NCBI GenBank assembly: GCA_963675855.1 | Contig: OY776633.1 | Span: 2,778,546-2,842,545 of the forward strand | Length of the DNA stretch: 64,000 bases | From: Christensenellaceae bacterium | GTDB taxonomy: Bacteria > Bacillota > Clostridia > Christensenellales > CAG-138 | Reading direction: 5' to 3' | In this document: positions 1,329 through 54,543 of the stretch, in pieces | How the letters are laid out: the number at the start of each line of letters is the position of its first letter | How positions within the stretch are numbered: position 1 is the stretch's first letter | The notes under the pieces: generated by a model | What the model saw: the letters and a program-made list of their open reading frames with translations, nothing else | Database searches by the model: none | What the model was told of the DNA's origin: nothing | Position numbers and translations under genes: made by a program

Positions 1329-1340
1329 CACGCTGCCGTA

Positions 1341-1375: not shown

Positions 1376-1379
1376 TCGG

Positions 1380-2141: not shown

Positions 2142-2165
2142 TCTAACACCCTCCCCGCATGCGCG

Positions 2166-2597: not shown

Positions 2598-2964
2598 GCG
2601 TCCTCCTCTGTTCGTTTAAAGCGAACGTTTGTACGCTTATTATACTCCGTTTCATCTGCTAAATGGTAGCGATTTTTGTACAACTTCCATTTTGAAACGG
2701 TATATATTTTTGGTAATTTATCGTATCCTGTCGATTTTTGTCGGTTTCTGCCCTTTTCGCACACATCCGCTGCGCATCGCCCCGCTCGCGGTCGAAAAAT
2801 GTTGCATTCCGTTCACGCGCACACTCCCGTCCGGCGTTGCCTGCCGGGAAAAGTCGTGTTATCATAGTACAGTGGTTTAAAAAGCGATTTTTTTCGCAAA
2901 TCAATTATCGCGCAAACGCACCGGAATATCCGGGCCGGCGCGCGCCGTACCATATTGAGGCACT

Positions 2965-3894: not shown

Positions 3895-3960
3895 CAGGAT
3901 CTCGAACCTGCATCCTTGCGGTTCGTTTTTCCGGACAGATCAAATCAACGGGGGGAATCA

Positions 3961-4788: not shown

Positions 4789-4792
4789 ATCG

Positions 4793-4826
4793 AAAAAAAG
4801 AAGCGCCGATTGGCGCTTCTTTTTTT
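4793..4826. terminator. bidirectional rho-independent terminator (DUF975 gene / glgA convergent)
   Basis: aaaaaaa-gaagcgcc-gatt-ggcgcttc-ttttttt, a perfect 8-bp stem with an A-run and a T-run. Confidence 0.8.
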
Positions 4827-4831
4827 GTATC

Positions 4832-6451: not shown

Positions 6452-6508
6452 GCAATCGCCTCCGTAAACCTTTCGCTTTATCCCCCGCCTTCTATGCAGA
6501 GGGAGGGG

Positions 6509-7633
6509 TTAAATAACCGTACCTTTTTTCAGAATGACCGGGAATCCTTCGTAACCGTTAAGCGTCCGCCCGTCGCGGATCACGACGCCTTTGTCGAGGA
6601 TCACATGATCCAGCCTGCAGTTTTCGCCGATGCTCACGCCCTGCATGATGATGCTGTCCTTCACGGCGGCGCCGCTTTTCACGCTCACGCCGCGGAATAT
6701 GATGCTGTTTTCGATCGTGCCTTCGATCTGGCAGCCGTCCGCGACCATGGAATTTTTGACCGACGCTTTTACGCCGTATTTGGCGGACACCTCGTCTTTG
6801 ACCTTCGTGTAGATCGGATGCCCGGGATTAAATAGATCGTTTCGCACTTCCGGTTCGAGCAGGGCGAGGTTGTGGCGGAAGAAATCGTTCGCCGAATCCA
6901 GCCGCGCGACGTACCCGTCGTATTGAAATCCCATGATCTTCAGCGTTCCGCACTTCTTGAGCAGGATATCGCGCGTAAAGTCGTAATCCCCGCGGGAAAA
7001 CGCCTCCTCCACCAGATACTCCAAAAGCAGCTTATCCATGACCATCAAATCGCAGCTTCTGTGTGTGGAGCGCGGCGTAAAGGGGTTGAACTCCATCTCG
7101 GTCACGCGACCGTCGGCGTCGAGTATCAGCCTCAGATCGAGGTTCTGCTCGTCGCCCGCGGAGGCTTCGACCTCGTTATAGAGCATTGTGATGTTCGCGC
7201 GTGTCTCGATATGCCGCGCGATCAGCTCGTCGAACGTCGTGTTGAATATCGTATGGCTGCCGGAGAAGATCACATATTGCTGCGGGCAGCGCCGCACGTA
7301 CCCGAGGCAGGAGCGGATGGCGTCCACGCTGCCGCGGTAAAGCCCCGTGTTTTCCTTCGTCATGAACGGCGGCAGCATGAACAGACCCTCGCGCTTTCTG
7401 TGGAGGTCCCATTCCTTGCCGGAACCCAAATGGTCCATCAGGGAGTGATAGTTTTTCTGCGCGATCATGCCGACGCTGGTTACGCCCGTGTTGACGAGAT
7501 CCGAGAGGATGAAGTCGATGCAGCGGTAGCGCCCGCCGAACGGGACCGCGGCGACCGAGCGCGATAACGCGAGGTCGCGCAGCATCGGGTTCGTCTCCCC
7601 TGTGTAGATGAGGCCAAACGCGTTACTAGTCAT
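6509..7633 (-). CDS. glgD: glucose-1-phosphate adenylyltransferase subunit GlgD
   Basis: It is paralogous to GlgC but lacks the GGxGxRL motif. '[22 protein letters not shown]' and a left-handed beta-helix C-terminus are present. The start at 7633 sits behind GGAGGAAGG, just after the glgC stop. Confidence 0.85.
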
Positions 7634-8852
7634 AGCACCTTCCTCCGCTTGCATCCTCGGTCGCAACCGTGCCCTGCGGCAGGTGGGCTTCCGGCTCTAT
7701 GCCGATATCGTTGCCGACGAGCGTGATCGTGCCGGTCAGTGCGTTGTCCACCCAGTCGCCGGGACGCAGGTCGCAGCCGATCACCGCGCGTTCGCCGACG
7801 ACCGAGTTCTCGCCGACGATGGCTTTGTATACCTTCGCCCCGCGCTTGATCACAGCGCCGGGAAAGATGACGGAATCAAACACCTCCGCCTCCGGTTCGA
7901 TCGATACGTTGGCAAACAGCACGCTGTGATGCACCGTTCCTTCCACGCGGCAGCCTTCGGTCACGAGGCTCTGCGTTACGGATGCTTCGTTTCCGACATA
8001 ATGCGGCGGCATGATGGGGTTGCGGCTGTATATCCTCCAGTTGGGGTCGTTGAGCACGAGCTTGGGCGGCGTGGAGATGATGTCCATGTTCGCCTCCCAG
8101 AGGCTCTGGATCGTTCCGACGTCCTTCCAGTATCCCTTAAACGGATACGCGTACACCGGCTGCCCGCCGTTAATAATGGAAGGTATGATATCGTTGCCGA
8201 AGTCGTTTGACGAGTTCGGCTTCTCGGCGTCTTTTCTCATGGACTCCTTCAGCGCGGGCCAGTTGAAGATATAGATGCCCATCGAGGCTTTATTGGATTT
8301 CGGATTCTTCGGCTTCTCCTCAAACGAAACGATCCGGTCGGCCTTGTCCGTATTCATGATGCCGAAGCGGTGCGCTTCCTCCATCGGTACGGGCAGCACA
8401 GCGATTGTGGCGACGGCGCCTTTCTCGATGTGGAAGCGGAGCATCGCGCCGTAGTCCATCTTGTAGATGTGGTCGCCCGATAGTATGAGCACATAATCCG
8501 GGTCGTACTGATCGACGAATTCGCGGTTTTGATAGATGGCGTTCGCCGTTCCGGTATACCAGCTGCTGTCCCCCGCGGTCACATACGGCGGCAGCACGAA
8601 CACGCCGCCGTGTATGCGGTCGAGGTCCCAGTGCTGGCCTGTGCCGATATAGCTGTTGAGCGCGAGCGGACGGTACTGCGTCAGAACGCCGACGGTATCG
8701 ATGTCCGAATTGACGCAGTTGCTCAGCGGGAAGTCGATGATACGGTACTTCCCGCCAAACGGTACGGCGGGTTTCGCCATGCTCGACGTCAGCACGCCGA
8801 GACGGCTGCCCTGTCCGCCCGCGAGGAGCATGGCCACGATCCGTTTTTTCAT
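7626..8852 (-). CDS. glgC: glucose-1-phosphate adenylyltransferase GlgC
   Basis: '[41 protein letters not shown]'. The start at 8852 sits behind AGGAGG and overlaps the glgB stop (ATGA). The ORF-track start at 8912 is an upstream extension. Confidence 0.95.
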
Positions 8853-10765
8853 GCGTCGTCCTCCTGTTTCGTTTCGGGTTTCGGCAGGGGTTTCGGGGTG
8901 ATATGGTAACATACCGCGCCAAAGGGCGGCAGCCGAAGGCGGATGCGGCAGGGATGCTCGCCGTAGTGTTCATACGCGGACATCGTCGGCGCGTTGGGAT
9001 AGTCCCCCGTGCCGCCGTAATACGGCGCGTCGGTAGAAAACACCTCCGTGTACAACCCGTACAACGGGACGCCGATCATATAATCCTTCCAAGGCATCGG
9101 CGTGAAGTTGAACGTCCAGAGAAGCGAGTTACCCTCCCTGTCGGTCCGCAGAAAGGAAAGGATCGAATGGATATTGTCGTCCACGCCGCACCACTGGAAG
9201 CCCGTCCAGTTGTCGTCTATTTCATACATCGGCGGATGATCGAGGTAAAAGTGGTTCAGGTCGTGCACGAACAGATGCATTTCCGCATGCTTCGGGTAAT
9301 CGAGCAGGAACCAGTCCAGCGAGTCGTCGAACTTCCACTCGATAAACTGGCCGAATTCGCCGCCCATAAACATGAGCTTTTTGCCGGGGTGCGCGTATTG
9401 ATATGCGTACACAAGCCGCAGCTGCGCAAACTGCTGCCAGTAATCGCCCGGCATCTTCGAGAGCATGCTCTTCTTGCCGTGCACCACCTCGTCGTGCGAA
9501 AACGGCAGGATATAGTGTTCCGAAAACGCATAGCACAGCGAAAACGTGAGTTTGTCGTGGTGGTATTTTCTGTAGATGCTGTCCATGCCCATGTACGTGA
9601 GCATATCGTTCATCCACCCCATGTTCCATTTATACGCAAACCCGAGGCCCTCGTCGGAGACGGGGCGCGTCACATACGGATATGCCGAACTCTCCTCGGC
9701 AAAGAGCATCTTGCCGCCGGAGAGCCTGTCGACCGCCGAATTGAGCTTTCTGAAAAACGAGATCACGTCGAGGTTGTCCCGTCCGCCGTAGCGGTTGGGC
9801 AGCCACTCGCCTGGCATCTTGCCAAAGTCGAGGTAGAGCATGGCGCTCACCGCGTCCACGCGCAATCCGTCAAAGTGGAATTCGCGCAGCCAGAACATCG
9901 CGCTCGAAATCAGAAAAGATTGTACCTGCGTCTTTTCAAAGTCGAAGAGCAGCGTGCCCCATTGAGGCATTTCCCCCCTGCGCGGATCCGGGTGCTCGAA
10001 CAGCGGCGTGCCGTCGAAGAGCCTCAGCCCGTGGGAATCCTTCGTAAAGTGCGCCGGCACCCAGTCCATGATCACGCCGAGTCCTGCGGCGTGCGCGCAG
10101 TCGACGAAGTACATCAGCTCTTCCGGATCGCCGTAGCGGGAGGTGGCCGCGAAGTACCCCGTCACCTGGTACCCCCAGCTCGGGTCGTACGGATATTCCA
10201 TCAGCGGCATGAGTTCGATATGCGTATACCCCATGTCCGCGACATAATCGACCAGCTCGTGCGCCAGCTCTCGATATCCCAGGCCCTGTTTCCAACTGCC
10301 GAGATGCGCTTCGTATATGCTCATCGGCTGGCTTGTATCTTTATCCGCGCCCTCCCTGCAGTCGATGTATTCCTCGTCCGTCCAGTCGAAATACGGCATG
10401 TCACCGACGACGGACGCGGTGCCGTCTTCCTCGGCCCGGAACGCGAACGGGTCGGCGCGCATGACGACTTCCCCGGTATAGGTGCCGATGGCATATTTAT
10501 AGAGATCGCCCGGCCGCGTAATGCCGATGGCGATCTCCCAGACGCCGGTCTCGCCGACGCGCTCCATATGATCAGCCTCGATGTTCCAGAAGTTGAAGGT
10601 TCCGACTACGCTGACGAACTCAGCATTCGGAGCCCATACGGAGAATCGATAAACTCTTTCTCCGAATTCGCCGACTCCTTCGTGGCAGCCCAGCTCCAGA
10701 TAAGCCGCCGTAGAGACGCCACGGTTAAAGTAGTAGAGTGCTGTTTCGTCCGAAAATTTGCTCAT
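8849..10765 (-). CDS. glgB: 1,4-alpha-glucan branching enzyme GlgB (GH13)
   Basis: 638 aa with GH13 signatures '[14 protein letters not shown]', 'AEESSAYP' and '[12 protein letters not shown]'. Confidence 0.95.
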
Positions 10766-11019
10766 CCATGCTACCCCCGGGTACTACGCTACAATGTCAT
10801 CATACCATCATTTTTCAACAAAGTGAACAGGTATCTGGCCGATTAGTCGCGTTGCTTCCCGATTTTACATACGGCTGACGGTTGATCTTTCGCTTATCCG
10901 GAACGAAATTTCAAATGAAAGCGCATACCGCCGTTTTTGCTTTCGCGCGTTTCATTTACCTCACCATGAAAAAATCGCAACGCGCAGCTTCCGCTTTTTG
11001 CGCGCCGAATCTTCGGTTG

Positions 11020-11028
11020 TGGTATAAT
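11020..11028 (+). promoter_or_regulatory. extended -10 promoter element (TGgTATAAT) for the AEC transporter gene
   Basis: The exact sequence tggtataat lies 59 nt upstream of the ATG at 11087. Confidence 0.4.
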
Positions 11029-11086
11029 GCTAGCTATATCGCGCTTCGCTCCGTCGGGCGCAGACTGAACGATCCGGAGTTCATGC

Positions 11087-12025
11087 ATGGAAAACCTGCT
11101 TCTATCCTTCAACGTCGTCGCTCCGCTGATGGTCTATATGCTCGTCGGCGTGCTGCTCAGAAGAACGAGCGTCGTTGAAGAGCGCGTGATGCGCAACGCC
11201 AACAACATCATCTTCTACGTCGCCGTGCCGCTGATGTGTTACCGCGCGATCGCGAAAAGCGACCTCAACGCGATGCTTGAAACGTCTTATCTGCTCTATA
11301 TGACAATCGGTATTTTGATCCTGTTTGTATTGGCCACGCTGTTTGTTCCGGTATTCTGTAAGGACAATCAGCGCAGGGGCGTAATCGCCATGAGCACCTT
11401 CCGCTCGAACGACGCCATATTCGGACTCGCCGTCGCCACGGCGCTGCTTGGGGAGGGTAACCTTGGCCTGATGTCGGTCGCCATCGCCCTTTGCGTGCCG
11501 CTTTACAACCTCCTCTCCGTGATCATCATGGAGCGTTATCGCGGCGAAACGGTGCAGGTCGGCAGGGTGTTGCTTCGAATCGTTACAAACCCGATTATTC
11601 TAGGCTGCGCGGCGGGTTTTGCCGTGAACCTCTTTAAAATTCAGCTGCCCGCCGTGCTGCAAAAGCCAATCGACGGAATCGTCTCGATGACCACGCCGCT
11701 TGCGTTTATACTGCTCGGCGGAACCATTTCGTTTTCCGCGCTGCGAAAAAACCGCGCCGCGATCGGGGCCGTTTCCGTGATCCGTCTGCTGGTTGCCCCG
11801 GCCGCTGCCGTCGGCTCGCTGCTGCTGCTCGGCTTCCGCGGCGAATTCATCGTGGTCGCGCTGATCCTCTTCGGCGCGCCTGTCGCGATGGCCACTTTCT
11901 CCATGTCCGTCGCCATGGATGCGGATTCCGAACTGGCGGGAACGCTGGTCGCCGTAACGAGCGTGCTTTCCATCTTCACTATGTTTGTGTTTATCTTTTT
12001 ACTGAAACAATTCGCTTTTATTTAA
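11087..12025 (+). CDS. AEC (auxin efflux carrier) family transporter
   Basis: 312-aa protein with about 10 TM segments. 'MENLLLSFNVVAPLMVYMLVGVLLRR' is a typical AEC/YfdV-like N-terminus. Confidence 0.75.
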   Translation: MENLLLSFNVVAPLMVYMLVGVLLRRTSVVEERVMRNANNIIFYVAVPLMCYRAIAKSDLNAMLETSYLLYMTIGILILFVLATLFVPVFCKDNQRRGVIAMSTFRSNDAIFGLAVATALLGEGNLGLMSVAIALCVPLYNLLSVIIMERYRGETVQVGRVLLRIVTNPIILGCAAGFAVNLFKIQLPAVLQKPIDGIVSMTTPLAFILLGGTISFSALRKNRAAIGAVSVIRLLVAPAAAVGSLLLLGFRGEFIVVALILFGAPVAMATFSMSVAMDADSELAGTLVAVTSVLSIFTMFVFIFLLKQFAFI

Positions 12026-12135
12026 CCTGCTTCACTATGTTTGTGTTTATCTTTTTGCTGAAACAATTCGCTTTTATTTAACCTGCTTCACTATGTTTGT
12101 GTTTATCTCTTTGCTGAAACAATTCGCTTTTATTA
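11975..12135 (+). repeat. 56-bp tandem repeat, about 2.9 copies, duplicating the last 16 codons plus stop of the AEC gene
   Basis: Copies lie at 11975-12030, 12031-12086 and 12087-~12134. The unit is ttcactatgtttgtgtttatctttttactgaaacaattcgcttttatttaacctgc, with 1-2 substitutions per copy. Confidence 0.95.
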
Positions 12136-12163
12136 TCCAGGCGAATCGCGATTGGAGTAACCT

Positions 12164-13375
12164 ATGACAAAACGTTTGTATGATATCGACAGCCATCAGA
12201 CCGAAATGGAAGCCGTGGTTTTATCCTGCGCGCCTGTAAAAGGCGCGTTCGACGTTACGCTCGACCAGACCGTGTTCTTTCCCGAAGGCGGCGGGCAGCC
12301 GTCCGATACGGGCGCGCTCGGAAAGGCGGTTGTTTCCCATGTGCGCGAGGACGACGGCGAAATCTATCACCGTATCGATCAGCCGCTGACCGTAGGATCG
12401 AAGGTCGCCGGCCGTATCGACTGGGCGCGCCGGTTCGATCTCATGCAGCAGCACACGGGCGAGCACCTGCTGTCGTTTTCGTTTTACGAACTGTTCTCCG
12501 CGAGCAACATCGGCTTCCACCTCGCGCTCGACTACGCTACGATCGACTTCGACAAACCGCTCGACGGCGAACAGATCGCCGAGGCGGAACGGCTCGCAAA
12601 CCGCTTTGTCTGGAAGAATCTGCCCGTGTCCACTGTCTTTTACGACGACGAAGAGGCGGTCAAGGACCTTCCGCTGAGAAAACACGCGGACGGGCTGCAG
12701 CCGCCGATCCGCGTCGTCGCCATCGAAGGCGCCGACATGTGCACCTGCTGCGCGCCGCACTGCCGCCGTTCCGGCGAGGTGGGCTGCGTGTTCGTCGCGG
12801 ACGCGTCGAGCTACAAAGGCGGTACGCGCATCACCTTTTACTGCGGGGAGCGCGCGCTGAAGCTGCACCGCTCGCAGCACGAGGACCTCGATGCGATCGC
12901 GCGCCGTTTTTCCTGCCCACGAGAGGACGCGTTCGGCGCGGTCAAGAAGCTATCCGACGACTACGGCGCGCTGAAGAAAAGCGAGCGGGATCTGGCGCGC
13001 GCGCTGAACGGCTATCTCGCGGCGGAACTGCTCGCCGAAGCTTCGCCGGCGGGAAAATACCGCGTGATCGTCCACCGCTATGGCGATATCGACGCCGCGC
13101 GGCTCAAAGACCTCGCGCAGGCCGCGTCCGCGGAAAAGACGCTCGTTCTGCTTCTGAGCGAAACCGGCGGAAGGCTCCTTTACGTGTTATCATCCGGCGC
13201 AGGATTCCCCGCGGACGTCTCCGAATTGATTCCCGCCGTCAACGCCGCGGCAAACGGCAAGGGCGGCGGACGCGGCACGCTCGCGCAGGGCACCGCCCCC
13301 TCCGCAGCGGGCGCGGACGAGACGGCGCAGCAGCTGAAGGAGTACTTCGTCCGGCGGTTGTCCGCGCTGAAATAA
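12164..13375 (+). CDS. alanyl-tRNA editing protein (AlaX-L type, tRNA_SAD + DHHA1-like)
   Basis: The zinc/editing motifs 'HTGEHLLS' (HxxxH) and 'CTCCAPHC' (CxxxH) match the AlaRS editing domain. 403 aa. Confidence 0.8.
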   Translation: MTKRLYDIDSHQTEMEAVVLSCAPVKGAFDVTLDQTVFFPEGGGQPSDTGALGKAVVSHVREDDGEIYHRIDQPLTVGSKVAGRIDWARRFDLMQQHTGEHLLSFSFYELFSASNIGFHLALDYATIDFDKPLDGEQIAEAERLANRFVWKNLPVSTVFYDDEEAVKDLPLRKHADGLQPPIRVVAIEGADMCTCCAPHCRRSGEVGCVFVADASSYKGGTRITFYCGERALKLHRSQHEDLDAIARRFSCPREDAFGAVKKLSDDYGALKKSERDLARALNGYLAAELLAEASPAGKYRVIVHRYGDIDAARLKDLAQAASAEKTLVLLLSETGGRLLYVLSSGAGFPADVSELIPAVNAAANGKGGGRGTLAQGTAPSAAGADETAQQLKEYFVRRLSALK

Positions 13376-13381
13376 CATTAT

Positions 13382-13410
13382 AAAAACGCCCGCAATGCGG
13401 GCGTTTTTTG
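13382..13410. terminator. bidirectional rho-independent terminator
   Basis: aaaa-acgcccgc-aat-gcgggcgt-ttttt, located between the convergent alaX-like gene and the small membrane gene. Confidence 0.8.
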
Positions 13411-13422
13411 TCTGGAAAAAGC

Positions 13423-13614
13423 TTAAATCCCCTTGAACAGTGTACCAAGGAAGAGCAAGCCGTACGCGGCGGTCATAATCCAAAAGTCGTTTGATCTGAC
13501 AAATCCGCCGATGAAAGGAATCCCGACAAACTTGCTCACGATCGCCAGCGCGGCGAGGATCAGCGCGAGCAGCCATACGATGGTTTTCGGTGCGCTCAGT
13601 TTCATTTGAGTCAA
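13423..13614 (-). CDS. small (63 aa) two-TM membrane protein, function unknown
   Basis: Hydrophobic segments 'IVWLLALILAALAIV' and 'FWIMTAAYGLLFLGTLF'. The third-codon positions are coding-like. No family was recognised. Confidence 0.5.
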   Translation of the reverse strand: MTQMKLSAPKTIVWLLALILAALAIVSKFVGIPFIGGFVRSNDFWIMTAAYGLLFLGTLFKGI

Positions 13615-13736
13615 CTCCTTTTTTGTTTTATGCTACCACATTTCAACTCCTGGAAAAGTAGTTTTGTCACAGAGTACTTTTCCTGGTGAATGCGTGCAAA
13701 AACGGTCGCCTCGTTAAAGACGACCGTTTTTTGCCT

Positions 13737-14861
13737 TTACAGGTCTTTCACGAAACAGCGGCGGCGTTTGTGCTGCACGCCTTTGAACCGGTCCCACTGC
13801 GCGAGGATGTTGTCGTTGATCTCCAGCATCGGTCCGGTCTCGGCGTACTTCACGCCGTGCTTGATGAGCTTGTGCTGCATGTCGTTGAGTACGACGGCGT
13901 TGACGCCCTGGCCCTGCAGGTCGGGGCGCACCGCGATGAGCAGCAGATCGACCGTGTCGTTCTTCCCTTTGAGCGCCTTGAGTAGATGGATCCATCCGAA
14001 TGGAACCGTTTTACCTTTCATCTTCTGCATGGCTTTGTCCAGGCGGGGGCAGCAGATGCCAAACGCGACCATCTCCCCCTCCTCCGTGTAGACAAACGAA
14101 GTGGTGCGCTTGCTGACCATGGGCCGGAACTCGCCGACGTATTTCTCGATCTGCGCCGGGGTCAGCGGAATCATGCCGAAGAGTGTGTACGCGTCGTTGT
14201 AGAGCTTGAACATGTCGTTGATGAGTTCTTTCAACGGTTTATCGCCCATGTTTACGACATGAAGCTTCTTGCGTTTTTTCACATACTCCGCCACGCGTAC
14301 AAGCGAGTCGATGGGCTCCGTCGGCAGCGTCAGGCGCATCTCCAGCCAGTCGACCTGTTTGCCGTAACCGCGCCGCGCCAGATGCTCAGGGTAGTATGGA
14401 TGGTTATAGTAGGTGTGAAAAAGGCTTAATTGATCAAATCCCTCGATCAGCATGCCCTCGCGGTCCATGTCCGAAAACCCGAGCGGGCCGTGCATCGCCT
14501 CGCAGCCGAGTTCCCGCGCCCAAGACTCCACCGTGTCAAACAGCGCGTCCACAACTTCGTCGTCATCGATAAAATCGACCTGCGTGAAGCACATATACTT
14601 CTTGCCGAATGTTGCGTTCGCACGGCTGTTGAATATCCCCTGAATCCTGCCTACGATTTCTCCACCCCGGCAGGCGAGAAACGCTTTGGACTGGCAAAAC
14701 TCGAATGCCGGATTTTTATCCTTTTGCATGTCGGCCACCTGGCTCGAAAGTATGTCCGGCACATAGTAAGGATTTCCCTTGTAGAGCTTAAGCGGGAACT
14801 CCATGAACTTGACCAAGTCCCTCTTGGTCACGGCCTCTTTGATCGTTACCACCAATTCCAT
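13737..14861 (-). CDS. GNAT-type N-acetyltransferase family protein (large, two-lobed)
   Basis: 374 aa. 'IVGRIQGI..' and 'LLIAVRPDLQGQGVNAVVL' form an acetyl-CoA binding Q/RxxGxG/A-like motif. A hairpin terminator follows downstream at 13700-13733. Confidence 0.5.
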   Translation of the reverse strand: MELVVTIKEAVTKRDLVKFMEFPLKLYKGNPYYVPDILSSQVADMQKDKNPAFEFCQSKAFLACRGGEIVGRIQGIFNSRANATFGKKYMCFTQVDFIDDDEVVDALFDTVESWARELGCEAMHGPLGFSDMDREGMLIEGFDQLSLFHTYYNHPYYPEHLARRGYGKQVDWLEMRLTLPTEPIDSLVRVAEYVKKRKKLHVVNMGDKPLKELINDMFKLYNDAYTLFGMIPLTPAQIEKYVGEFRPMVSKRTTSFVYTEEGEMVAFGICCPRLDKAMQKMKGKTVPFGWIHLLKALKGKNDTVDLLLIAVRPDLQGQGVNAVVLNDMQHKLIKHGVKYAETGPMLEINDNILAQWDRFKGVQHKRRRCFVKDL

Positions 14862-14878
14862 CCCCCTGTTCTGAATCG

Positions 14879-15874
14879 TTATTCTTTTTTCTTTACGGTG
14901 ACCTCCGGTTCGATCCCCTGCATCTGCTGCGCCCTGAGCGCAGCCGCTTTTTTACGCTTGTTTTTCTTATGCAGGATAATCGGCAGCCCGATGGCAAGGA
15001 ACAGCACGCCTGCCGGAATCGCTGCTACGGCGAGGAAAATACCGATCGCGCCAATCGCGTTTACGACGAAGCGCGCGCTGTTGGAAAACCCGCGGGACAT
15101 CTTATCCCATACGTCAGAAGCTTTCCACAGCTGGATGAGGTCTTTTTCGCCTTCGACCGCCGTCAGCGGCGTGCGGTCAATGGTGACGTTGAGCGTGGCG
15201 TAGGCCACGAGGTTGTCCCAGAGGTTCATCTGAGCGGTATAGCTCTCGATATCCGAGCGCACGCTCGTCAGGCTCTGGCGAACGGCGAGAATTTCCTCCA
15301 CCGTTTCGCATCTATTGAGGATTTCCAGCAGCTGCTGTTCTTCCGCCTTGGCGTTGTCGAGCCGCGCCTGCATGTCGTAATACGACAGCGAGATATCGTC
15401 CGAGCTCAGGCGGTAGTCGTCCACTTTGCCAAGTTCGTTTGCCGCGGTAATGAGTTCCTCAAGTTTGTCCGCCGGCACTTTGATCGTGGCGGTCGCGTAG
15501 GTTGTGCCTTTTTCGTCCGTTGTCGAATAGGAACCGGATACGTATCCGCCAAGCGCTTTCGCCTTGGCTAAAAGCGTATCCAGCGAAGCGGCGGGATCGT
15601 CCGCGGTGATGCTCATGTTCGCCGTGTATATGATTTTTCGAACATCGAAATCGCCCGTGGTTTCCGTGGCGGAATTGGATGCGGAATCCATTACGGCGTC
15701 CTCCGCCTGCGGGGCATAGGCGGCTTCTTCATAAGCCATTTCCGTCTCATAGGCGCCGCCTTCCGCTTTGTCATAAGACGCGGTGCTCGATACGGCGTTT
15801 TTGGCCGCGCAGCCGATGGTAAATAGCATCATCACAGCGAGAGTGAGCGCAATCAGGATGCGTTTTTTATTCAT
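14879..15874 (-). CDS. DUF4349 domain lipoprotein
   Basis: Lipoprotein signal 'LAVMMLFTIGC', a central coiled-coil region 'YYDMQARLDNAKAEEQQLLEIL', and a C-terminal TM with a KKNKRKK anchor. I moved the start to 15874, behind an AGGGAGAAAG RBS. Confidence 0.65.
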   Translation of the reverse strand: MNKKRILIALTLAVMMLFTIGCAAKNAVSSTASYDKAEGGAYETEMAYEEAAYAPQAEDAVMDSASNSATETTGDFDVRKIIYTANMSITADDPAASLDTLLAKAKALGGYVSGSYSTTDEKGTTYATATIKVPADKLEELITAANELGKVDDYRLSSDDISLSYYDMQARLDNAKAEEQQLLEILNRCETVEEILAVRQSLTSVRSDIESYTAQMNLWDNLVAYATLNVTIDRTPLTAVEGEKDLIQLWKASDVWDKMSRGFSNSARFVVNAIGAIGIFLAVAAIPAGVLFLAIGLPIILHKKNKRKKAAALRAQQMQGIEPEVTVKKKE

Positions 15875-16131
15875 ATCTTTCTCCCTTTCTGATTCGTTCG
15901 TTTGTTCTTGCCCCCGCTCAAACACAGGCGGGCGCCGGTGAAAAACTCACCGTGCTTTCATATAGAACACTGCGCTTCCCCGCAAATGGTTGCATGTTTT
16001 AATATCAAACGCGAATTTTCGCAGAAACCCGCGCGTATCTAACCGGCGCGCCTAAGAAATATTGAATATAGAATACCATCTTTTCCCCGAAAAAACAGCT
16101 GCCCGCGTTTTTTTACGGATTCAGGCGCTTG

Positions 16132-38517: not shown

Positions 38518-40116
38518 CTATATAATCCGTCCTCTACGATAAACAGGATTTCTCCAACTGCGAAGTTTCTCAATTGCTTCACGAATGCTGATAATATCTT
38601 TATTCGAAAAATCAAATATTCCTTTTAAAACTAATTCATCACCAAGCGTATAAGTAGCTTCAATACCGCTTTCAATAGCAGAATTATTTAATTGTGAAAA
38701 AATGCCAGGCACTTTATCGCGAGGTATATCAGCGATTATTTCTAATCTGTCGGCTTCACCAGGAATAACGACAAAACTTCCGCCTCCAAGCGAATGAACA
38801 TTAAGTTCAATTGATAATAAAGTTAGACTATTATACCAACGACATAATAGTTGCTCAGTGGTCGTGTTATTTAAATAACCGCCTAAAAGACTATTTGAAA
38901 CAACATAATTTCCTTTGTTTGCTATCATTTTCGGTTTATCACCAAACACTGATAATATCACATCTGGTATTTCAATGTTTGGAGTAATATACCATGGTTT
39001 GCGTAGACGGCATTTATAGCGTTTCTGTACACCTAGCATTTCCCCACTTTTAATATATAGTCTATCGCCTTCAGAAATTGTCCGTGGAATATATAGTCTT
39101 GACGTACACTCTCCTTTATTCACTTCAATGCCAATGCCCGTACCACCATTAACTTCTTTCGCATTAAGAATAGTAGGCAGTAAATTTTCGTCTGGTAACA
39201 GAAATTGTGCGACAACATCATGTTTGGGATGGAAATATTTCTTATCGGCAGAAACATAACCAATTTTAAATTTGCAACTTTCAAGTATCGGACGAATATG
39301 CTTTTTTTCTCTTAATCGCTCTAAAATTTGTTCTTGTGGAGCAGACAATACTGCTGAGATAAAAGGCTTTTTTCTATCTAGTATATCTTCTAGAGCTATT
39401 CGTTCTTGCTGAAATGCTTGTTTTAATAACAGATCATCGATTGTATTATATATCTCATAATTTATATAATCTGTTTCCCCTCCCTTCCCATCAGCAAAGA
39501 GAAGAACTGTTTCAACATCAACATTAGGAAAAAAATCCTCGTATATACGGCAAATAGTAAGTTCAGAAAAACTCTTTGCTAGTATTTTTAACATCCCAAA
39601 AGCATAACGTGCATATGTGATTTCAAAAGGTAAAACAAATGCTAGGCGTCCATTCTTTTTAAGTGCAGTAATTGCTTTTAAAATAAAAGGAAACCACAAA
39701 CTTCCATTATTTGGACATTGAACTTTATTACATGAAATGACTTGTTGAGCAGTCTCACGTTGTTCAAGTGGCACGTTTCTGATGCTTACATAAGGTGGAT
39801 TTCCTAAAACTACATCAAACTGATCATCGAAATTAAGCGACAAAAAATCTGCAGTACGTACATCCAGCATCTCTGCAGGATATCTGCAACGAACATAGTT
39901 AGCCACATCTGCTTGAATTTCAACCGCCGTAATAAGTGGCTTTGAAGCACCTAACGTTCCAAAGCGTTTAAATGATTTGTCAATAAAAATTCCATTGCCA
40001 AACGAAGGCTCTATCACATGGTCATTCTTGTTTCTAATAGCCCAATTCACTACACTTTCAGCCACTTTGCTTTCTGTGTAAAATGAACCTGTAAGTTTCT
40101 GTCTATCTAAATCCAT
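38518..40116 (-). CDS. gamma-class N6-adenine DNA methyltransferase (Eco57I/TaqI-like N6_Mtase with C-terminal target-recognition domain)
   Basis: Motif X 'GSFYTE', motif I 'VIEPSFGNGIF' (39985-40014) and motif IV 'LGNPPYV' (NPPY at 39790-39801) appear in the gamma order X-I-IV. A C-terminal region of about 300 aa is a plausible TRD. Confidence 0.85.
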   Translation of the reverse strand: MDLDRQKLTGSFYTESKVAESVVNWAIRNKNDHVIEPSFGNGIFIDKSFKRFGTLGASKPLITAVEIQADVANYVRCRYPAEMLDVRTADFLSLNFDDQFDVVLGNPPYVSIRNVPLEQRETAQQVISCNKVQCPNNGSLWFPFILKAITALKKNGRLAFVLPFEITYARYAFGMLKILAKSFSELTICRIYEDFFPNVDVETVLLFADGKGGETDYINYEIYNTIDDLLLKQAFQQERIALEDILDRKKPFISAVLSAPQEQILERLREKKHIRPILESCKFKIGYVSADKKYFHPKHDVVAQFLLPDENLLPTILNAKEVNGGTGIGIEVNKGECTSRLYIPRTISEGDRLYIKSGEMLGVQKRYKCRLRKPWYITPNIEIPDVILSVFGDKPKMIANKGNYVVSNSLLGGYLNNTTTEQLLCRWYNSLTLLSIELNVHSLGGGSFVVIPGEADRLEIIADIPRDKVPGIFSQLNNSAIESGIEATYTLGDELVLKGIFDFSNKDIISIREAIEKLRSWRNPVYRRGRII

Positions 40117-40131
40117 AATAATCTGTCCTAG

Positions 40132-40761
40132 TTATAATGGTTTGCGATTATTATAGGTATTCACAATTTTGTCAAAGAAGTTATCAATACTGAGTAACGG
40201 TATCGTGTTTATCAGAGTAGGAGGGTTGTTTTGAAAATCAACTTTGAGGAAAGCGAAATGCTCATATTTGTCCTTTGTTCCTCGCCAATCATCTCTACCT
40301 ACGATGCGTTCAAACAGGCGCTCAGCACGATCAAGATTCACTTCTTCTCGAAGTCCTTCTTTAATCGGGTGGTTAGGTAATAAATAAACATAACATAAAA
40401 CAGCCATTGGAAATCTATCATGTAGAGAAATACAATCACCGATAATCTCTTCATAGTATGTTAGTAGATTCTTTGCCACCGATGACATTTGACTACGAAT
40501 GCCTATTATTATCTGTGGCCCATTAATGTTTTCAATGACAGCCACGTCAACATCCTTTGGTTTGTGAGAGCCATAAATGGTGGCTTCCTTAATAATTTGA
40601 AAACTAGCATTATCAATCCCTACTTTTCTTAGTTCAGATATGCAATAATCATGCAAAACATTAATAAATTCTTGACTGCGCACTGAAGCTACAGGTGCAT
40701 TGAGATATATTGTTTTCATTTCTTGTAAACAATTAATTAACGCTTGTTTTTGTATTGGCAT
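40132..40761 (-). CDS. putative Type II restriction endonuclease (assignment by context only)
   Basis: 209-aa ORF 15 nt upstream of the methyltransferase, on the same strand and with the same AT-rich composition. A possible PD-(D/E)xK-like core lies around 'KPKDVDVAVIE..IIIGIRSQ', but no family was recognised. Confidence 0.45.
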   Translation of the reverse strand: MPIQKQALINCLQEMKTIYLNAPVASVRSQEFINVLHDYCISELRKVGIDNASFQIIKEATIYGSHKPKDVDVAVIENINGPQIIIGIRSQMSSVAKNLLTYYEEIIGDCISLHDRFPMAVLCYVYLLPNHPIKEGLREEVNLDRAERLFERIVGRDDWRGTKDKYEHFAFLKVDFQNNPPTLINTIPLLSIDNFFDKIVNTYNNRKPL

Positions 40762-49897: not shown

Positions 49898-50293
49898 TTA
49901 TCCGCCGATCACCAGCACGGCAAACCTGCGCGCGCGCGGACCGTCGAACTCGCAAAAGTACACGCCCTGCCAGGTGCCGAGCGTCAGCCTGCCGTTTGAC
50001 ACGGGGATGGTCGCGCCGCTGCCGATGACGCTCGCTTTGAGGTGCGCGGCGCTGTTGCCTTCCATGTGCCGAAACTCCGGCCGGTCGGGGTATGTTTTCT
50101 CCAGCGCGAAAATCAGGTCGCGCACCACGTCCGGGTCGGCGTTTTCGTTGATCGTAATCCCCGCCGTCGTGTGCGGGCAGTAGACGAGGCAGAGGCCTTC
50201 GCTTACGCCGCTTTCGCGCACGGCGTCCTGCACCCGCGCCGTCACGTCCGTCCAGTCGTTGCGCCCCGTCCTCAGCGAAAATTCGCGCTGCAT
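49898..50293 (-). CDS. YjbQ / UPF0047 family protein (secondary thiamine-phosphate synthase-like)
   Basis: 'CLVYCPHTTAGITINENADPDV', 'GNSAAHLKAS' and 'LGTWQGVYFCEFDGPR'. The start at 50293 sits behind GGGAGGA. Confidence 0.85.
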   Translation of the reverse strand: MQREFSLRTGRNDWTDVTARVQDAVRESGVSEGLCLVYCPHTTAGITINENADPDVVRDLIFALEKTYPDRPEFRHMEGNSAAHLKASVIGSGATIPVSNGRLTLGTWQGVYFCEFDGPRARRFAVLVIGG

Positions 50294-50417
50294 GCCGCAT
50301 CCTCCCGTTTTTGTCCCGTTTCGCACATTATACCACGGCAACATCAAATCCGCGTTTACGAATCCGCGCGATGCTGATAGAATATGGCTATTAAAACACA
50401 GATCGGAGTGGTACGTT

Positions 50418-50948
50418 ATGGCAGCGGCAAAAGGGCTCACGGCGGTAAAGGCGGATGAAAAGGCGAAGATTCGCGGCTACGGCATCGAGCTCAACGACGA
50501 AAAGCTCTCCCGGATCGACAAGATCGTGGAGAGCTACGAGCGGCGCGTCGCCGCGCGGCTGGACGAGGAATACGTGATGCACACGCGGCCCTCCGACCGC
50601 GTTGCGGACAAGGTCGCGGCGTTCGGCGGCAGCTGGACGTTTATCATCATCTTCGCGGCGTTTCTGTTTATCTGGATTCTGATCAACCTGCTTCCCGTGC
50701 TCGGCGTGCAGTTTGACCCGAAGCCGTTTATCCTGCTCAACCTCATCCTCTCGTTCATCGCCGCGTTTCAGGCGCCGATCATCATGATGAGCCAGAACCG
50801 GCAGGCGGCAAGGGACAAGCACGAGTCGATCATCGACTTTGCGATCAACTACAAAGCCGAGCAGGAGATCGACGATCTGCAGAAGCACCTGCACCGGATG
50901 GAGGCGGAGTTGAAGGAGATGAAGGAGATGTTGAGGGAGAGGGGGTGA
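50418..50948 (+). CDS. DUF1003 domain membrane protein
   Basis: 'DKVAAFGGSWTFIIIF', 'FDPKPFILLNLILSFIAAFQAPIIMMSQNRQ' and a C-terminal coiled coil. The start is the ATG at 50418. Confidence 0.8.
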   Translation: MAAAKGLTAVKADEKAKIRGYGIELNDEKLSRIDKIVESYERRVAARLDEEYVMHTRPSDRVADKVAAFGGSWTFIIIFAAFLFIWILINLLPVLGVQFDPKPFILLNLILSFIAAFQAPIIMMSQNRQAARDKHESIIDFAINYKAEQEIDDLQKHLHRMEAELKEMKEMLRERG

Positions 50949-50966
50949 GGACTCAATTAAATGAGA

Positions 50967-53033
50967 TTATCCGATTTTTGTTAACTCTACTTGAATATTG
51001 GTTAACATTCCTTCGAGCAAGCGCTGCTGCACACAGAAATATTGTTCATCTTCATCATTTATACCTTCTGTATCTTCTTGCCAGAATTCAGAGTGTTTTT
51101 TGGCAATATCTGGTTTCAGCTTTAGGTGGTCTTCATTGTGTCTGTATACTTTTATTCTTTCCAAGGATGAAAACAAAGCTGGATAAGATGCTTTTATTTC
51201 TGACCAAAAATACTTGGCTCTGCCTATAGAAACACCATAGTTTTCTATAGATTCAACGAAGCACCTATTGCATATATTTATGAAATGATAAAAATCGCTT
51301 TTTCGCGAAGTTGGCGTAACCGCAGCGAATTTTTCGGCTTCAGGAAAGGAGTTCTCTCCAAACAATTTTGGAAGTTTTAAAATGTAGATTGCCGTCTCTA
51401 GTTCTCTCATATCTCTGATAATTACACTTACTCTCTGAGCAATCCACTTTTTACGCTTCTCTTTATCAATTACCTTATAAAGCGATTTTCGGTTTTCTTT
51501 TTTTGCTAACTCTGTTGCGACATATCTACCTGCAACTGGCATTTTTACTCGTGGAATATTATCCGCATCCTTTTCAACAAGACCATAATTATATAAATGT
51601 TTTACAAAATCTGATAACGCTGAAAGTTCAATAAAATCACTTGTTTGGCCAGAAGCTAATAACTCAAACATCTCATACTCTTCAGGATAAAACTGCTGTA
51701 TTTCTGAAACAATATGTTTAAAATAATAAGCCAATTCAGTATCTATATCCGTTTGATACTTTTTTATCTCGTTGAGACTTACTTCAACTGGTCTTTTTGT
51801 ATTTGAACACTCACGATTAATATAACTACATACAAGTCGAGTAAGCATCGGATGCCCATTGTATTGTTTGAAAAGAAATTCAATTGCATCATAATTGAAT
51901 TTAAGACCCATTCTTCTGCCCAATGTTCGAATCATATTGTGCAAGTCTTCATTTGTTAGTCCTTGCAAATATTCTGATTGGACTATTCCAAACAATGGAT
52001 TTTGTATTCCTTCAATTGTATCGATTTCAGTTACACTTGGATTTACACCTGAAATAATGAAGACTAAATTTCTATGTAAGCTCTGAATTGACCACAAAGT
52101 TTGCCAAAAATCAACGAACTCCGTTTTCCAATGCACATCTAAAGGCGATTTAAATGATATGTATTCAATCTCATCAAACATTATGATAATTTTTATATTC
52201 CTTATCGATGCTTCTTTCATAACGAAACGGAAACTTTTTATAATATTCAATGCATCATATTCTCGCCGTATCCTCACTTTTAAACGCTTCGCAATATTAT
52301 CACAAATTGATCCCAAAAATTCATTCCAATGCATTTTTCGATACGATGGAGATTTACAGTCATAAAAGAACACAAAACCCAAATGCTGTTCTCTAATCAC
52401 CCGATCAATCTTGAAAAGAAGGGATGTTTTTCCAACTTTTCGCACGCCAAAAATCCCTTTATTTTCGCATCTTCTTATTGAATCTATATATCGAGCGACT
52501 AATTGTTGTCTGCCAAAAAAAGAGCTTTCTTCTCGTATAGGAAGCGTATAACCAAACAGATCAATATCAAAGAAATTATCTCTAAGAATATTTCTTATAT
52601 ACCATGCATCGCTTCTGTTTTTTAATAGATCCGAATACAATATTGGAACAAAAACTCTTGAACTTTCATCACCAAAGAGCTTTACTCCTTTATGCTCTAA
52701 TACCCTTTCGTCTTTTGAAACAAATATACAATTAAGTGTATCTACTCTTCCTTGAAACGGATGAATATTGAACAAAGAATGTGCAGCCTGAAATGCCCTA
52801 GGTTGTAATTCATCAAACGGAGTATAGATTAGAAGTATTTCTTTTTCAAGACCGAACGCTTCTGTAATATGTTTTTCGGGTTTCAACATGAATACAAAGA
52901 CTACCGTATTAGTAGTCTCTTTTTTATCAGCATATGTCACATCAAAAACATGTATGAATGCAGCTAGAAAACCGTAAAATTCAGGATATTGCGTCAGAAA
53001 TCCATTCTGAACTTCTTCTTTTATTCTGCCCAT
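50967..53033 (-). CDS. 688-aa P-loop ATPase with an unknown N-terminal domain, a wHTH-like segment and a C-terminal HEPN-like (Rx4H) region; function unknown, candidate defence protein
   Basis: 'FFGRQQLVARYIDSI..' precedes Walker A 'GIFGVRKVGKTSLL' (52422-52448). Walker B is 'IIIMFDEIE' (52164-52190), and 'GHPMLTRLV' is lid-like. A wHTH-like segment spans ~aa 455-505. The C-terminal 'LERIKVYRHNEDHL' contains RHNEDH at 51126-51143. GAGGAGG RBS and its own promoter are present. Confidence 0.85.
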   Translation of the reverse strand: MGRIKEEVQNGFLTQYPEFYGFLAAFIHVFDVTYADKKETTNTVVFVFMLKPEKHITEAFGLEKEILLIYTPFDELQPRAFQAAHSLFNIHPFQGRVDTLNCIFVSKDERVLEHKGVKLFGDESSRVFVPILYSDLLKNRSDAWYIRNILRDNFFDIDLFGYTLPIREESSFFGRQQLVARYIDSIRRCENKGIFGVRKVGKTSLLFKIDRVIREQHLGFVFFYDCKSPSYRKMHWNEFLGSICDNIAKRLKVRIRREYDALNIIKSFRFVMKEASIRNIKIIIMFDEIEYISFKSPLDVHWKTEFVDFWQTLWSIQSLHRNLVFIISGVNPSVTEIDTIEGIQNPLFGIVQSEYLQGLTNEDLHNMIRTLGRRMGLKFNYDAIEFLFKQYNGHPMLTRLVCSYINRECSNTKRPVEVSLNEIKKYQTDIDTELAYYFKHIVSEIQQFYPEEYEMFELLASGQTSDFIELSALSDFVKHLYNYGLVEKDADNIPRVKMPVAGRYVATELAKKENRKSLYKVIDKEKRKKWIAQRVSVIIRDMRELETAIYILKLPKLFGENSFPEAEKFAAVTPTSRKSDFYHFINICNRCFVESIENYGVSIGRAKYFWSEIKASYPALFSSLERIKVYRHNEDHLKLKPDIAKKHSEFWQEDTEGINDEDEQYFCVQQRLLEGMLTNIQVELTKIG

Positions 53034-53067
53034 ATATCCTCCTCAAAAAATGCGAATTCTTAATATG

Positions 53068-53096
53068 ACTTTACATTAAGAAAATACAAATTTCAA
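53068..53096 (-). promoter_or_regulatory. candidate promoter of the ATPase gene (TTGAAA-17 nt-TAAAGT) overlapped by an inverted repeat
   Basis: On the minus strand, -35 TTGAAA is the complement of 53091-53096 and -10 TAAAGT is the complement of 53068-53073. The inverted repeat ttcttaat/attaagaa (53057-53064 / 53075-53082) brackets the -10. Confidence 0.35.
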
Positions 53097-53225
53097 TAGA
53101 ATTTACTACATTCTTAAGTGTTTCTTCCCTTTGCTCCTTACCCTTCCTCCAACTCCAAATCCAATAACCCCCACTATGCCAAAACCACCCGCAGCCTATT
53201 CCGCGCGCCCCGCGTTAAATCTCCC

Positions 53226-53948
53226 CTACCCCAACAACAGCGCTTCCAACTCCTCAAACCCGTCCACGGTATAGGTCGGCTGAATCTCTTCGCGCGCCTT
53301 TGCACCCTCTGGCCGCAGCCAGCAGGTGTCCATCCCCGCGTTGATGCCGCCTAAAATATCTGCGGTGAGCGAATCGCCGATCATGAGGTATTTGCTCCTC
53401 TTTTCGTCGCCAAAATGGTCGAACACGCGGTCGAAATACGCCTTGTCCGGCTTCTGCACGCCCATCTCCTGCGAGATGAACACCCCGTCGAACAGCGCGT
53501 CGAACCCGGTGCGCTTCAGCCGCTCGCGCTGCACGATCTTCAGCCCGTTGGTCACGGCGGCGATGCGGTAGCGTTCTTTGAGCCGCACGAGCAGCTCTTC
53601 TGCGCCGTCGAACAGGACCGCCTGCCGGCTGAGGTTGTCCACATATTGCGCGTTGAGCGCGGTCGCCCCGGCGGCGTCCTGCCCGAGATGCTCCAAAAAC
53701 ATCTCGAAGCGCACGCGCTGCACGCCCTCGCTGTTTAGCAATCCCTTTTCGAACCTGCCCCATACGACCGTATTGATCTCGCGGTACTTTTTGTAGTCGC
53801 GCTCGCCGATGGAGCTGCCCCGCTCCTCCATCGTCTGCATCAGCGCGATCTTTTCGCCCGCGTGGAAGTCCATGAGCGTATTGTCGAGGTCGAAGAGCAG
53901 GAATTCGTAGCGCAGGGGTTTTGTAGGATCGTTCGTCTTTTTCATCAT
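53226..53948 (-). CDS. HAD-IA hydrolase, YjjG-like 5'-nucleotidase family
   Basis: 'FLLFDLDNTLMDF' (motif I), 'AAVTNG' (motif II) and 'MIGDSLTADILGGINAGMDTCW' (motif IV). I moved the start to 53948; the ORF-track extension to 54194 has no support. Confidence 0.8.
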   Translation of the reverse strand: MMKKTNDPTKPLRYEFLLFDLDNTLMDFHAGEKIALMQTMEERGSSIGERDYKKYREINTVVWGRFEKGLLNSEGVQRVRFEMFLEHLGQDAAGATALNAQYVDNLSRQAVLFDGAEELLVRLKERYRIAAVTNGLKIVQRERLKRTGFDALFDGVFISQEMGVQKPDKAYFDRVFDHFGDEKRSKYLMIGDSLTADILGGINAGMDTCWLRPEGAKAREEIQPTYTVDGFEELEALLLG

Positions 53949-54117
53949 ACCCTCAAGGTTACAGTATTCGAGCGCGAAGTTCAACCAAATCCGCGCGTTT
54001 TGTCGTACGAAAAATCGCCGGGCTCTTTTGTGATTCGATTTTGCGCGATCATAATTCGACCACATTCCGCACTTATCATGAAAGTACGAAATGCAACCGA
54101 TTAAAGGAGGTGTAACC

Positions 54118-54543
54118 ATGAGGAAAGTATTGATGATTATCGCAATCGCCGTTCTGGTGCTCGTACCGGTCACCGCGCTCGCGCTGTACGCCAATTCCGC
54201 ACCCGCCGCAGACCGCGCCTACTACCGCGCTGAGGTGGTTCGCCCGGAATTGACCGAGCAGCAGCAGGCCGATCTGGAGGCGTCGTTCAACGACATGATC
54301 GCGCTTCGGAAAGAATCGATCGAAACGATGCTGGCGGACGGTCTTTACACCGAAGAACAGGCGCAGCTCGCGCTCGAGCGGCTCGACGAGATGGCAGCGT
54401 ACCACGCGGAAAACGGCTATTGGTACGGCTATGACGGTGAATTCGGCTGTTTCGGCGACGATGACTTCGGCTACGGCCGCGGTATGATGCGCGATGACAG
54501 ACGCGGCATGATGCCCGGTTACGGCTACTACGACTGGAACTGA
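54118..54543 (+). CDS. secreted/anchored LTXXQ-motif protein (Spy/CpxP/ZraP- or DUF2680-like) with a Gly/Tyr/Met/Asp-rich tail
   Basis: Signal/anchor 'MRKVLMIIAIAVLVLVPVTALALYA'. Two LTXXQ-like motifs, 'ELTEQQQADLEA' and 'LYTEEQAQLALE'. Tail 'GYWYGYDGEFGCFGDDDFGYGRGMMRDDRRGMMPGYGYYDWN'. AAGGAGG RBS. Confidence 0.6.
   Translation: MRKVLMIIAIAVLVLVPVTALALYANSAPAADRAYYRAEVVRPELTEQQQADLEASFNDMIALRKESIETMLADGLYTEEQAQLALERLDEMAAYHAENGYWYGYDGEFGCFGDDDFGYGRGMMRDDRRGMMPGYGYYDWN

Follow-up and report, generated by a model that had tools for sequence, protein, structure and literature searches.

A lone AT-rich gene of a Christensenellaceae bacterium encodes a candidate single-protein immune switch with a STAND-like ATPase and a HEPN-like C-terminal domain

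The window analyzed here is a stretch of 64,000 nucleotides (nt) from a Christensenellaceae bacterium (assembly GCA_963675855.1, contig OY776633.1, positions 2,778,546 to 2,842,545 of the forward strand), and our subject is one gene within it, at 50967..53033 on the minus strand, whose product of 688 amino acids (aa) joins an N-terminal domain, a P-loop nucleoside triphosphatase (NTPase), a linker and an all-helical C-terminal domain. On balance we read this gene as a self-contained single-protein switch for immunity or abortive infection that has not been catalogued, a reading to which we give somewhat better than an even chance. It is suggested by an invariant R-x4-H motif in the C-terminal domain, the exchange of that domain for known effector domains in related proteins, and the frequent company of restriction-modification (R-M) and mobility genes.

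In the mechanism that we propose, the N-domain, perhaps together with the linker, would respond to a cue of infection, most likely some feature of a nucleic acid. The ATPase would then oligomerize in an NTP-dependent way and pair two C-terminal domains, so that their Arg and His residues form a composite, metal-independent RNase site of the HEPN type; cleavage of tRNA, rRNA or mRNA at that site would halt translation and abort the infection.

Gene, domains and ATPase

According to the list of open reading frames (ORFs) and its translation, the ORF is complete, with an ATG start and 688 codons plus stop. Its GC content is 0.335, against 0.58 in the rest of the window, and the AT-rich insert (~50950-53130) has sharp edges, holds this one gene and a leader of ~100 bp, and carries no recombinase of its own. 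The gene is a lone, AT-rich, horizontally acquired insert between two housekeeping genes, which encode a DUF1003 protein (50259-50948, plus strand) and a HAD hydrolase (53226-54194, minus strand). The initial annotation had spoken of a lone gene on a foreign AT-rich insert, and the GC contrast and these flanks bear that out. The insert boundaries show neither target-site duplications nor terminal inverted repeats, and no iteron-like repeats were found around the gene. Judged from its sequence the ORF is no chance event, because stop codons are frequent in 2 kb of DNA at 33% GC, and because there are at least 448 homologues of near-identical length.

The features of the gene and its leader are given below. 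The motifs picked out by the initial annotation (FFGRQQL, Walker A, Walker B, ISGVNP, GHPMLTRLV and RHNEDH) are all present, and its DNA coordinates for them are correct.

52530..53033 (-), aa 1-168: N-terminal alpha/beta domain (AlphaFold2 model; conserved residues)
51714..52526 (-), aa ~170-440: P-loop NTPase of AAA_35 / ATPase_2 / nSTAND type (Pfam)
aa 172-178 (-): FFGRQQL, read from the translation
52422..52448 (-), aa 196-204: Walker A, GVRKVGKTS, with K202 (translation and conservation)
52164..52190 (-), aa 282-290: Walker B, IIIMFDEIE (translation and conservation)
51834..51860 (-), aa 392-400: lid motif NGHPMLTRL, putatively GxP-type (translation and conservation)
51501..51713 (-), aa 441-511: linker, putative winged-helix region, conserved in both subtypes
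50970..51500 (-), aa 512-688: C-terminal all-alpha domain of 177 aa, candidate HEPN-like effector (AlphaFold2 model)
51126..51143 (-), aa 631-636: RHNEDH, the R-x4-H motif, read from the translation
53034..53130 (-): AT-rich leader, with a GGAGG Shine-Dalgarno sequence 7 nt before the ATG
53096-53068 (-): promoter-like TTGAAA-17-TAAAGT from a consensus scan, a consensus match only, with predicted function

Conservation was assessed in 56 diverse members of the family's 'long' subtype, to which the query protein belongs and which are 27-53% identical to it, and 45 members of a 'short' subtype were examined alongside. In Pfam the query matches AAA_35 (E 1.4e-6), its 27.8 bits just clearing the cutoff of 27; its matches to ATPase_2 and nSTAND1 fall short of theirs. 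The 56 long-type members match ATPase_2 (44/56, best 6.2e-12), AAA_35 (41/56), nSTAND1 (29/56) and nSTAND6 (26/56). These matches uphold the original placing of a P-loop NTPase in the neighborhood of ATPase_2, ORC-Cdc6 and STAND proteins. In a sequence search of the PDB the closest entries were archaeal Cdc6 (2v1u) and the ATPase_2 proteins 2fna and 2qen, none of them significant. Only 17 columns are invariant in the long type, mostly in or near the ATPase motifs; G196, R198, G201, K202 and S204 of Walker A and D287, E288 and E290 of Walker B are invariant, and G393, H394, P395, L397 and R399 of the lid (GGHP(L/M)L) are nearly so. By analogy with what is generally known of STAND NTPases, NGHPMLTRL would be a STAND-like GxP lid, and by sequence the ATPase is STAND/ORC-Cdc6-like, with Walker A, Walker B and this putative lid intact. 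A Pfam match to the 'winged helix' of E2F_TDP at aa 245-275 falls within the ATPase and was dismissed as spurious.

The N-domain is modeled by AlphaFold2 as an alpha/beta domain (predicted local distance difference test score, pLDDT, 85; predicted template-modeling score, pTM, 0.82) with conserved residues P52, F60, E65, R79, R96, P130 and P165, and it has no match in Pfam or among PDB sequences. Its top Foldseek matches are RPB5-N, EndoMS and the nuclease domain of Cap4, all non-significant (E 0.06-0.1, TM<0.4); RPB5-N, EndoMS/NucS and the Cap4 domain are what we take to be restriction-endonuclease-like folds. The order of secondary-structure elements is compatible with the alpha-beta-beta-beta-alpha-beta core of PD-(D/E)xK enzymes, the fold matches being weak, and the family alignments contain no conserved D...(D/E)xK catalytic set. 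From alignments and model together, the domain is possibly derived from a restriction endonuclease and probably non-catalytic. The linker (aa 441-511) keeps the motifs FYPEEYEM and HLYxYGL in both subtypes; a winged helix, which the initial annotation saw at aa ~455-505, is plausible there because the segment follows what would be the GxP lid in a STAND-like protein.

Interchangeable C-termini and the R-x4-H domain

A word-indexed search returned the relatives counted above (at least 448), nearly all of 686-690 aa and 53-83% identical to the query, mostly from gut metagenomes; matches in genomes came from Oscillospiraceae, Flavonifractor, Pseudoflavonifractor and Lachnospiraceae, and from metagenome-assembled genomes (MAGs) of Chloroflexia (43%) and Chitinispirillales (32%). 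When the family profile was run exhaustively with HMMER, 2695 cluster representatives passed E<=1e-3, and 569 (clusters at 50% identity) passed E<=1e-30. Relatives thus collected span Clostridia, Proteobacteria (E. coli, Klebsiella, Ralstonia), Deinococcus, Chloroflexi and others; in public databases their labels go no further than 'ATP-binding protein' or 'AAA-like domain-containing protein'.

Two subtypes were distinguished. Members of the long subtype align with the query over its full length, those of the short subtype (655-680 aa) only up to about residue 510-545, beyond which the C-terminus differs. The N-domain, ATPase and linker are common to both, and the C-termini are interchangeable: the variants seen in the superfamily are a Swt1-like HEPN domain, the long domain of the query, an AlbA_2/Schlafen domain and, in one member, TIR. 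Known effector domains (Swt1-HEPN, AlbA_2 and the single TIR) thus take the place of the query's C-terminal domain in relatives, while the N-domain stays constant, and on this ground we regard the C-terminus as the likely effector position.

In the short subtype, the C-terminal domain is a Swt1-like HEPN (PF18731) at the same position as the query's C-domain. HEPN_Swt1 is matched by 17/45 members (best 2.7e-6, at 28.1 bits, where the gathering score is 27.5; the L017 protein matches at 5.5e-5 over the whole model), and this helical domain ends in an R-x3/4-H motif.

The C-domain of the query is all-helical in its AlphaFold2 model (pLDDT 92, pTM 0.87), with helices at domain residues 13-40, 67-91, 107-120, 130-144 and 150-176. 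In the model, helix 107-120 closes with R631, and H636 sits in the turn that leads into helix 130-144. Across the 56 long-type members these two residues are invariant, and no other position in the last ~270 aa is; both are invariant again in a separate alignment of 30 C-domain sequences. The long-type consensus of the motif is Y-R-[HN]-x-x-x-H, and divergent members read YRNWLCH, YRNATHH and YRHKAQH; the query subtype thereby shows the motif pattern of the HEPN superfamily, R-x4-6-H with a polar residue (N, H or D) after the Arg. The long C-domain can be called HEPN-like by motif, composition and position, its homology to HEPN and its identity as a nuclease being putative.

A wider proposal, which we hold tentatively and think rather less than evenly likely, is that the whole superfamily is a widespread, uncatalogued class of single-protein immune receptors of 'inverted' STAND polarity, with a constant N-terminal sensor, an ORC/STAND-like switch and interchangeable C-terminal effectors. 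The long domain would then represent a new family of RNases, either a HEPN clade that has diverged past the reach of current profiles and Foldseek or an independent helical fold with a convergent R-x4-H active site.

Some members depart from the two layouts. (i) P0300 has its C-terminus replaced by a Schlafen/AlbA_2 domain, and the TIR domain is carried by one short-type member. (ii) In P0349 and P0318 the N-terminus is extended by a stretch that resembles, by eye, a cold-shock domain (GFGFI). (iii) P0121, P0126, P0153 (Roseateles), P0167 and P0193 are ORFs of 180-230 aa that hold the C-domain only or the N-domain only; they lie on contigs of 38-150 kb and are therefore not truncations at contig ends, and could be split genes, decaying genes or standalone domain proteins. 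(iv) Among 18 genome loci, three copies are apparently disrupted: L012 (10300-10320) by a 1-nt difference within a T-run, L018 (8690-8961) by a run of Ns only, and L014 (10219-10255) by a frame change in a MAG that we take to be a long-read assembly. These disruptions may be assembly artifacts; real pseudogenes are indistinguishable from assembly errors here.

Neighborhoods and mobility

Ten long-type lineages with annotated neighbors were sampled for context, and in 8/10 of them genes of R-M, of other conflict systems or for recombinases or conjugation lie no more than ~5 kb away, so that a link to defense or mobile DNA holds in most of the sample. The contexts seen were:

type III Mod and Res genes directly upstream on the same strand, with a 31-nt gap
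an Eco57I-like methylase
an element with integrase, Toprim and resolvase
a Dam-like methyltransferase and an AAA_15/21 ATPase
a large serine recombinase and PDDEXK_2
MjaI restriction endonucleases with a methyltransferase, a D5 primase and a capsid gene
Fic, NikA and YhcG
L050, 1836-6810: a four-gene block upstream, encoding PRTase-CE, an ORC-CDC6-like ATPase (PF24389), a 303-aa protein and an Eco57I-type N6 methyltransferase (N6_Mtase)
L047 (the P0102 lineage), 1-16067: AAA_13 ATPase, NUDIX/NrtR, microbial PARG, RlaP nucleotidyltransferase, Tpt1/KptA RNA 2'-phosphotransferase, tRNA_edit and Uma2 nuclease
L049: neutral, the gene alone between housekeeping genes

The lineage linked to Mod and Res is the most populous 90%-identity cluster among the matches listed, with 646 member sequences. 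Placed right after a type III res gene, the switch may serve as a PrrC-like second line of defense for cases in which restriction has been disabled. The four-gene block of L050 looks like another conflict system. The L047 neighborhood has an ambiguous flavor of NAD/ADP-ribose metabolism and RNA repair that could be relevant to an RNA-targeting function.

The gene keeps its own base composition from host to host: 28-39% GC in L019-L050 and in the window, in host flanks of ~40% to >60%, the sole exception being L016 with a gene of 60% GC. Beside res, it has a GC of 0.37, as against 0.46-0.55 for Mod and Res and 0.61 for the host flanks. Since its GC differs from that of Mod, Res and the host flanks, the gene behaves as a discrete cassette; cassette copies are only ~65% identical to one another.

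Copies occur on prophages and on plasmids, some of the latter adjoining toxin-antitoxin pairs. A long-type copy (39% identity) is on a Ralstonia megaplasmid, and short-type copies are on Klebsiella IncF plasmids and a Deinococcus plasmid. The short-type E. coli protein WP_097318268.1 (666 aa) is found in 2/5,426 complete E. coli genomes; its locus in the chromosome of E. coli AREA_497 (L046, 9402-12774) lies in a degraded lambdoid prophage, at the end nearest the integrase, and adjoins yjjG.

In the window itself the nearest R-M-like genes are ~10 kb off, in a second AT-rich island (38518-40761, minus strand, GC 0.34-0.42) flanked by the genes of a MatE transporter and a DUF4256 protein. This island encodes a 532-aa M.Eco57I-like N6-adenine methyltransferase (Eco57I, M_Eco57I_C, N6_Mtase); the 209-aa ORF beside it has no match in Pfam and is plausibly the cognate restriction endonuclease.

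Relation to known systems and alternative readings

The query matches no PADLOC-DB 2.0 family at E<=10 and no NCBIfam model, in agreement with the initial annotation, which could place it in no named defense family. The short subtype gave only weak matches to PADLOC at the level of the ATPase, with PDC-M34B (7/45) and PDC-S01 (5/45) as candidates. No description of the family was found in the literature searched; judged by PADLOC 2.0, NCBIfam and that literature, the family is probably uncatalogued. The sister short subtype (WP_097318268.1; WP_094716518.1 on a Klebsiella plasmid) resembles the query in size, in its single-gene organization, here on prophages and plasmids, and in its N-domain, ATPase and linker, which are homologous to those of the query as far as aa ~510-545; it differs in its Swt1-like HEPN C-terminus, the C-domain of the query being ~40 aa longer and not alignable to it by hhalign. 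The earlier remark that 'RELETAIYIL' of the query resembles the N-terminal helix of Swt1-type HEPN domains is in keeping with the Swt1-like HEPN that the sister subtype has at this position.

PrrC and RloC, offered earlier as analogues together with Avs-like proteins, have like the query an NTPase and a C-terminal R-x4-H (HEPN-type) RNase in one polypeptide, the RNase of the query being a candidate only. They also share an abortive logic, predicted for the query, and a linkage to R-M, which some lineages of the query family show (type III, MjaI- and Eco57I-type) and the window does not. From general knowledge and the summary in the DARNA preprint, the ATPase of PrrC and RloC is ABC/Rad50-like and PrrC sits in type Ic hsd loci. 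By contrast, the ATPase of the query is STAND/ORC-like, matching AAA_35, ATPase_2 and nSTAND and no ABC-type models; PrrC and RloC lack an equivalent of its 168-aa N-domain, and the query has no PADLOC or Pfam match to their families. Avs and other bacterial STAND (NLR-like) antiviral receptors resemble the query, as we read it, in being single proteins centered on a STAND-type NTPase and its GxP lid (putative in the query), with modular effectors and a home in defense islands; oligomerization-driven activation is expected for such receptors, and STAND proteins usually have N-terminal effectors (PMC13581612). Unlike Avs, the query is much smaller (688 aa), has no TPR or other repeat sensor (its 177-aa C-domain contains no repeats) and carries its swapped, effector-like module at the C-terminus, and it matches no PADLOC Avs model.

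HEPN RNases dimerize to form composite sites and are fused to STAND or AAA+ NTPases in conflict systems (PMC3710099; PMC8195603; DARNA preprint, 10.64898/2026.02.22.705581). The HEPN fusions of the Swt1/Abi2 clade (Anantharaman et al. 2013, PMC3710099; Kaur et al. 2021, PMC8195603) share with the query the theme of a HEPN RNase with an NTPase switch, often in R-M neighborhoods. Unlike the query, Ava_2192 has its HEPN domain fused to a DUF499-type AAA+, and the published STAND-HEPN examples have TPR or S1 domains or an N-terminal HEPN (PMC3710099, PMC8195603); the succession of N-domain, AAA_35/ATPase_2, linker and C-domain was not found described in either of these papers. RNase L/Ire1 (KEN-domain HEPN) and Csm6 probably offer an analogy to the proposed working, with ligand sensing, dimer or oligomer formation and a composite HEPN site, but they are not homologous, and the switch of the query is a P-loop NTPase instead of a pseudokinase or CARF domain. 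DARNA / PD-T7-3, with an N-terminal HEPN, no ATPase and 456 aa, was rejected as a relative. The NTPase-plus-HEPN theme is already established in conflict systems, and the query protein fits none of PrrC/RloC, Avs and DARNA / PD-T7-3.

Several results weigh against the reading as an immune switch with a HEPN-type RNase. The query has no match to the Pfam HEPN clan at E<=10, none of the 56 long-type members matches a HEPN family at E<=0.1, and none of the ten most divergent C-domains does so at E<=10; the lone trace of the clan in the long type is DUF4145, in 2/21 members at E 0.07. Comparison of the long (56 sequences) and short (45 sequences) C-domains by hhalign gave a probability of 2%, and 0.2% with a shallower alignment; the pairing it made of long-type 'NRCFVE' with short-type 'R-DAH' was not interpreted at that 2%. 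With the C-domain model, Foldseek found a best E of ~1 in the PDB, where HepT HEPN chains lie in the noise at E~2.2, and no match in BFVD beyond helical-bundle noise; searches of PDB sequences, whether by the single protein or by domain profiles, returned no significant match for this domain. The R-x4-H motif could accordingly be convergent or non-catalytic. The HEPN call of the initial annotation keeps its invariant motif, its all-alpha domain and a sister Swt1-like HEPN at the same position, but not a profile, hhalign or structural match. Moreover, 2/10 sampled lineages and the window itself have no adjacent defense gene; the family is absent from the INPHARED phage collection and rare in IMG/VR (3 loci), with little direct tie to phage biology; and the usual STAND order of N-terminal effector and C-terminal sensor is inverted here. 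The immune reading as a whole is computational, and the defense function is predicted.

If the canonical STAND polarity applied instead, the N-domain would be a DNase effector of restriction-endonuclease fold and the C-domain a sensor for a phage protein or nucleic acid, its R/H pair being a binding determinant. This would still be defense, and we consider it unlikely, though it gains from the identity of the top Foldseek matches of the N-domain (RPB5-N, EndoMS/NucS and Cap4, all restriction-endonuclease-like folds), from the N-terminal effectors usual in STAND proteins (PMC13581612) and from the lack of detectable HEPN homology in the C-domain. All of those fold matches are non-significant, however, the conserved residues are E65, R79, R96 and prolines instead of a D...(D/E)xK triad, and a constant N-domain with a C-terminus swapped for Swt1-HEPN or AlbA_2 is the usual signature of a C-terminal effector position. 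We rank this arrangement below a C-terminal RNase because the N-domain has no catalytic set and is constant, not swapped.

Two further readings dispense with phage defense, and we think each of them improbable. The protein might be an ORC/Cdc6-like DNA-binding ATPase in the service of a mobile element, for replication initiation, partition, target selection or TniB/IstB-like help in transposition, or else a transcriptional switch. The ATPase does belong to the ATPase_2 / ORC-Cdc6 neighborhood, with Cdc6 and ATPase_2 proteins as its nearest, non-significant PDB sequences, one member has a weak TniB match, and the gene often adjoins serine or tyrosine recombinases. Yet in the window and in L049 it has only housekeeping genes on either side and neither a recombinase nor a replicon, and in a type III R-M locus it comes immediately after res; it is flanked by no terminal or iteron-like repeats; and the HEPN, TIR or AlbA_2 domains of the sister proteins are effector modules, not replication modules. 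Alternatively, and with a similarly slim chance, the gene could be a selfish addiction toxin, its loss or silencing being harmful, or a weapon of inter-element competition that attacks rival plasmids or elements. Its behavior as an AT-rich cassette across hosts of very different GC, its plasmid copies beside toxin-antitoxin pairs and its near-absence from phage genomes would suit such a role, against which stand the lack of a conserved small antitoxin-like partner ORF across the sampled lineages and the single-chain NTPase switch, which argues for triggered and not constitutive toxicity. This possibility overlaps heavily with abortive infection, and the two are computationally inseparable.

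The family is one of many computational defense candidates; it is large and unannotated, and its catalytic-looking C-domain is not placed by current tools. If the reading as a single-protein immune switch is true, the gene would be a compact (~2.1 kb) one-gene defense system, represented by hundreds of sequence clusters now annotated only as ATP-binding proteins, and would offer a simple model of RNase activation by an NTPase switch; HEPN-like catalytic domains would then extend past the reach of current profile and structure searches. The relatives on an E. coli prophage and a Klebsiella plasmid make the superfamily directly testable in standard hosts. Gut Clostridia of humans and animals commonly carry the family, which may therefore affect how susceptible microbiome bacteria are to phages.

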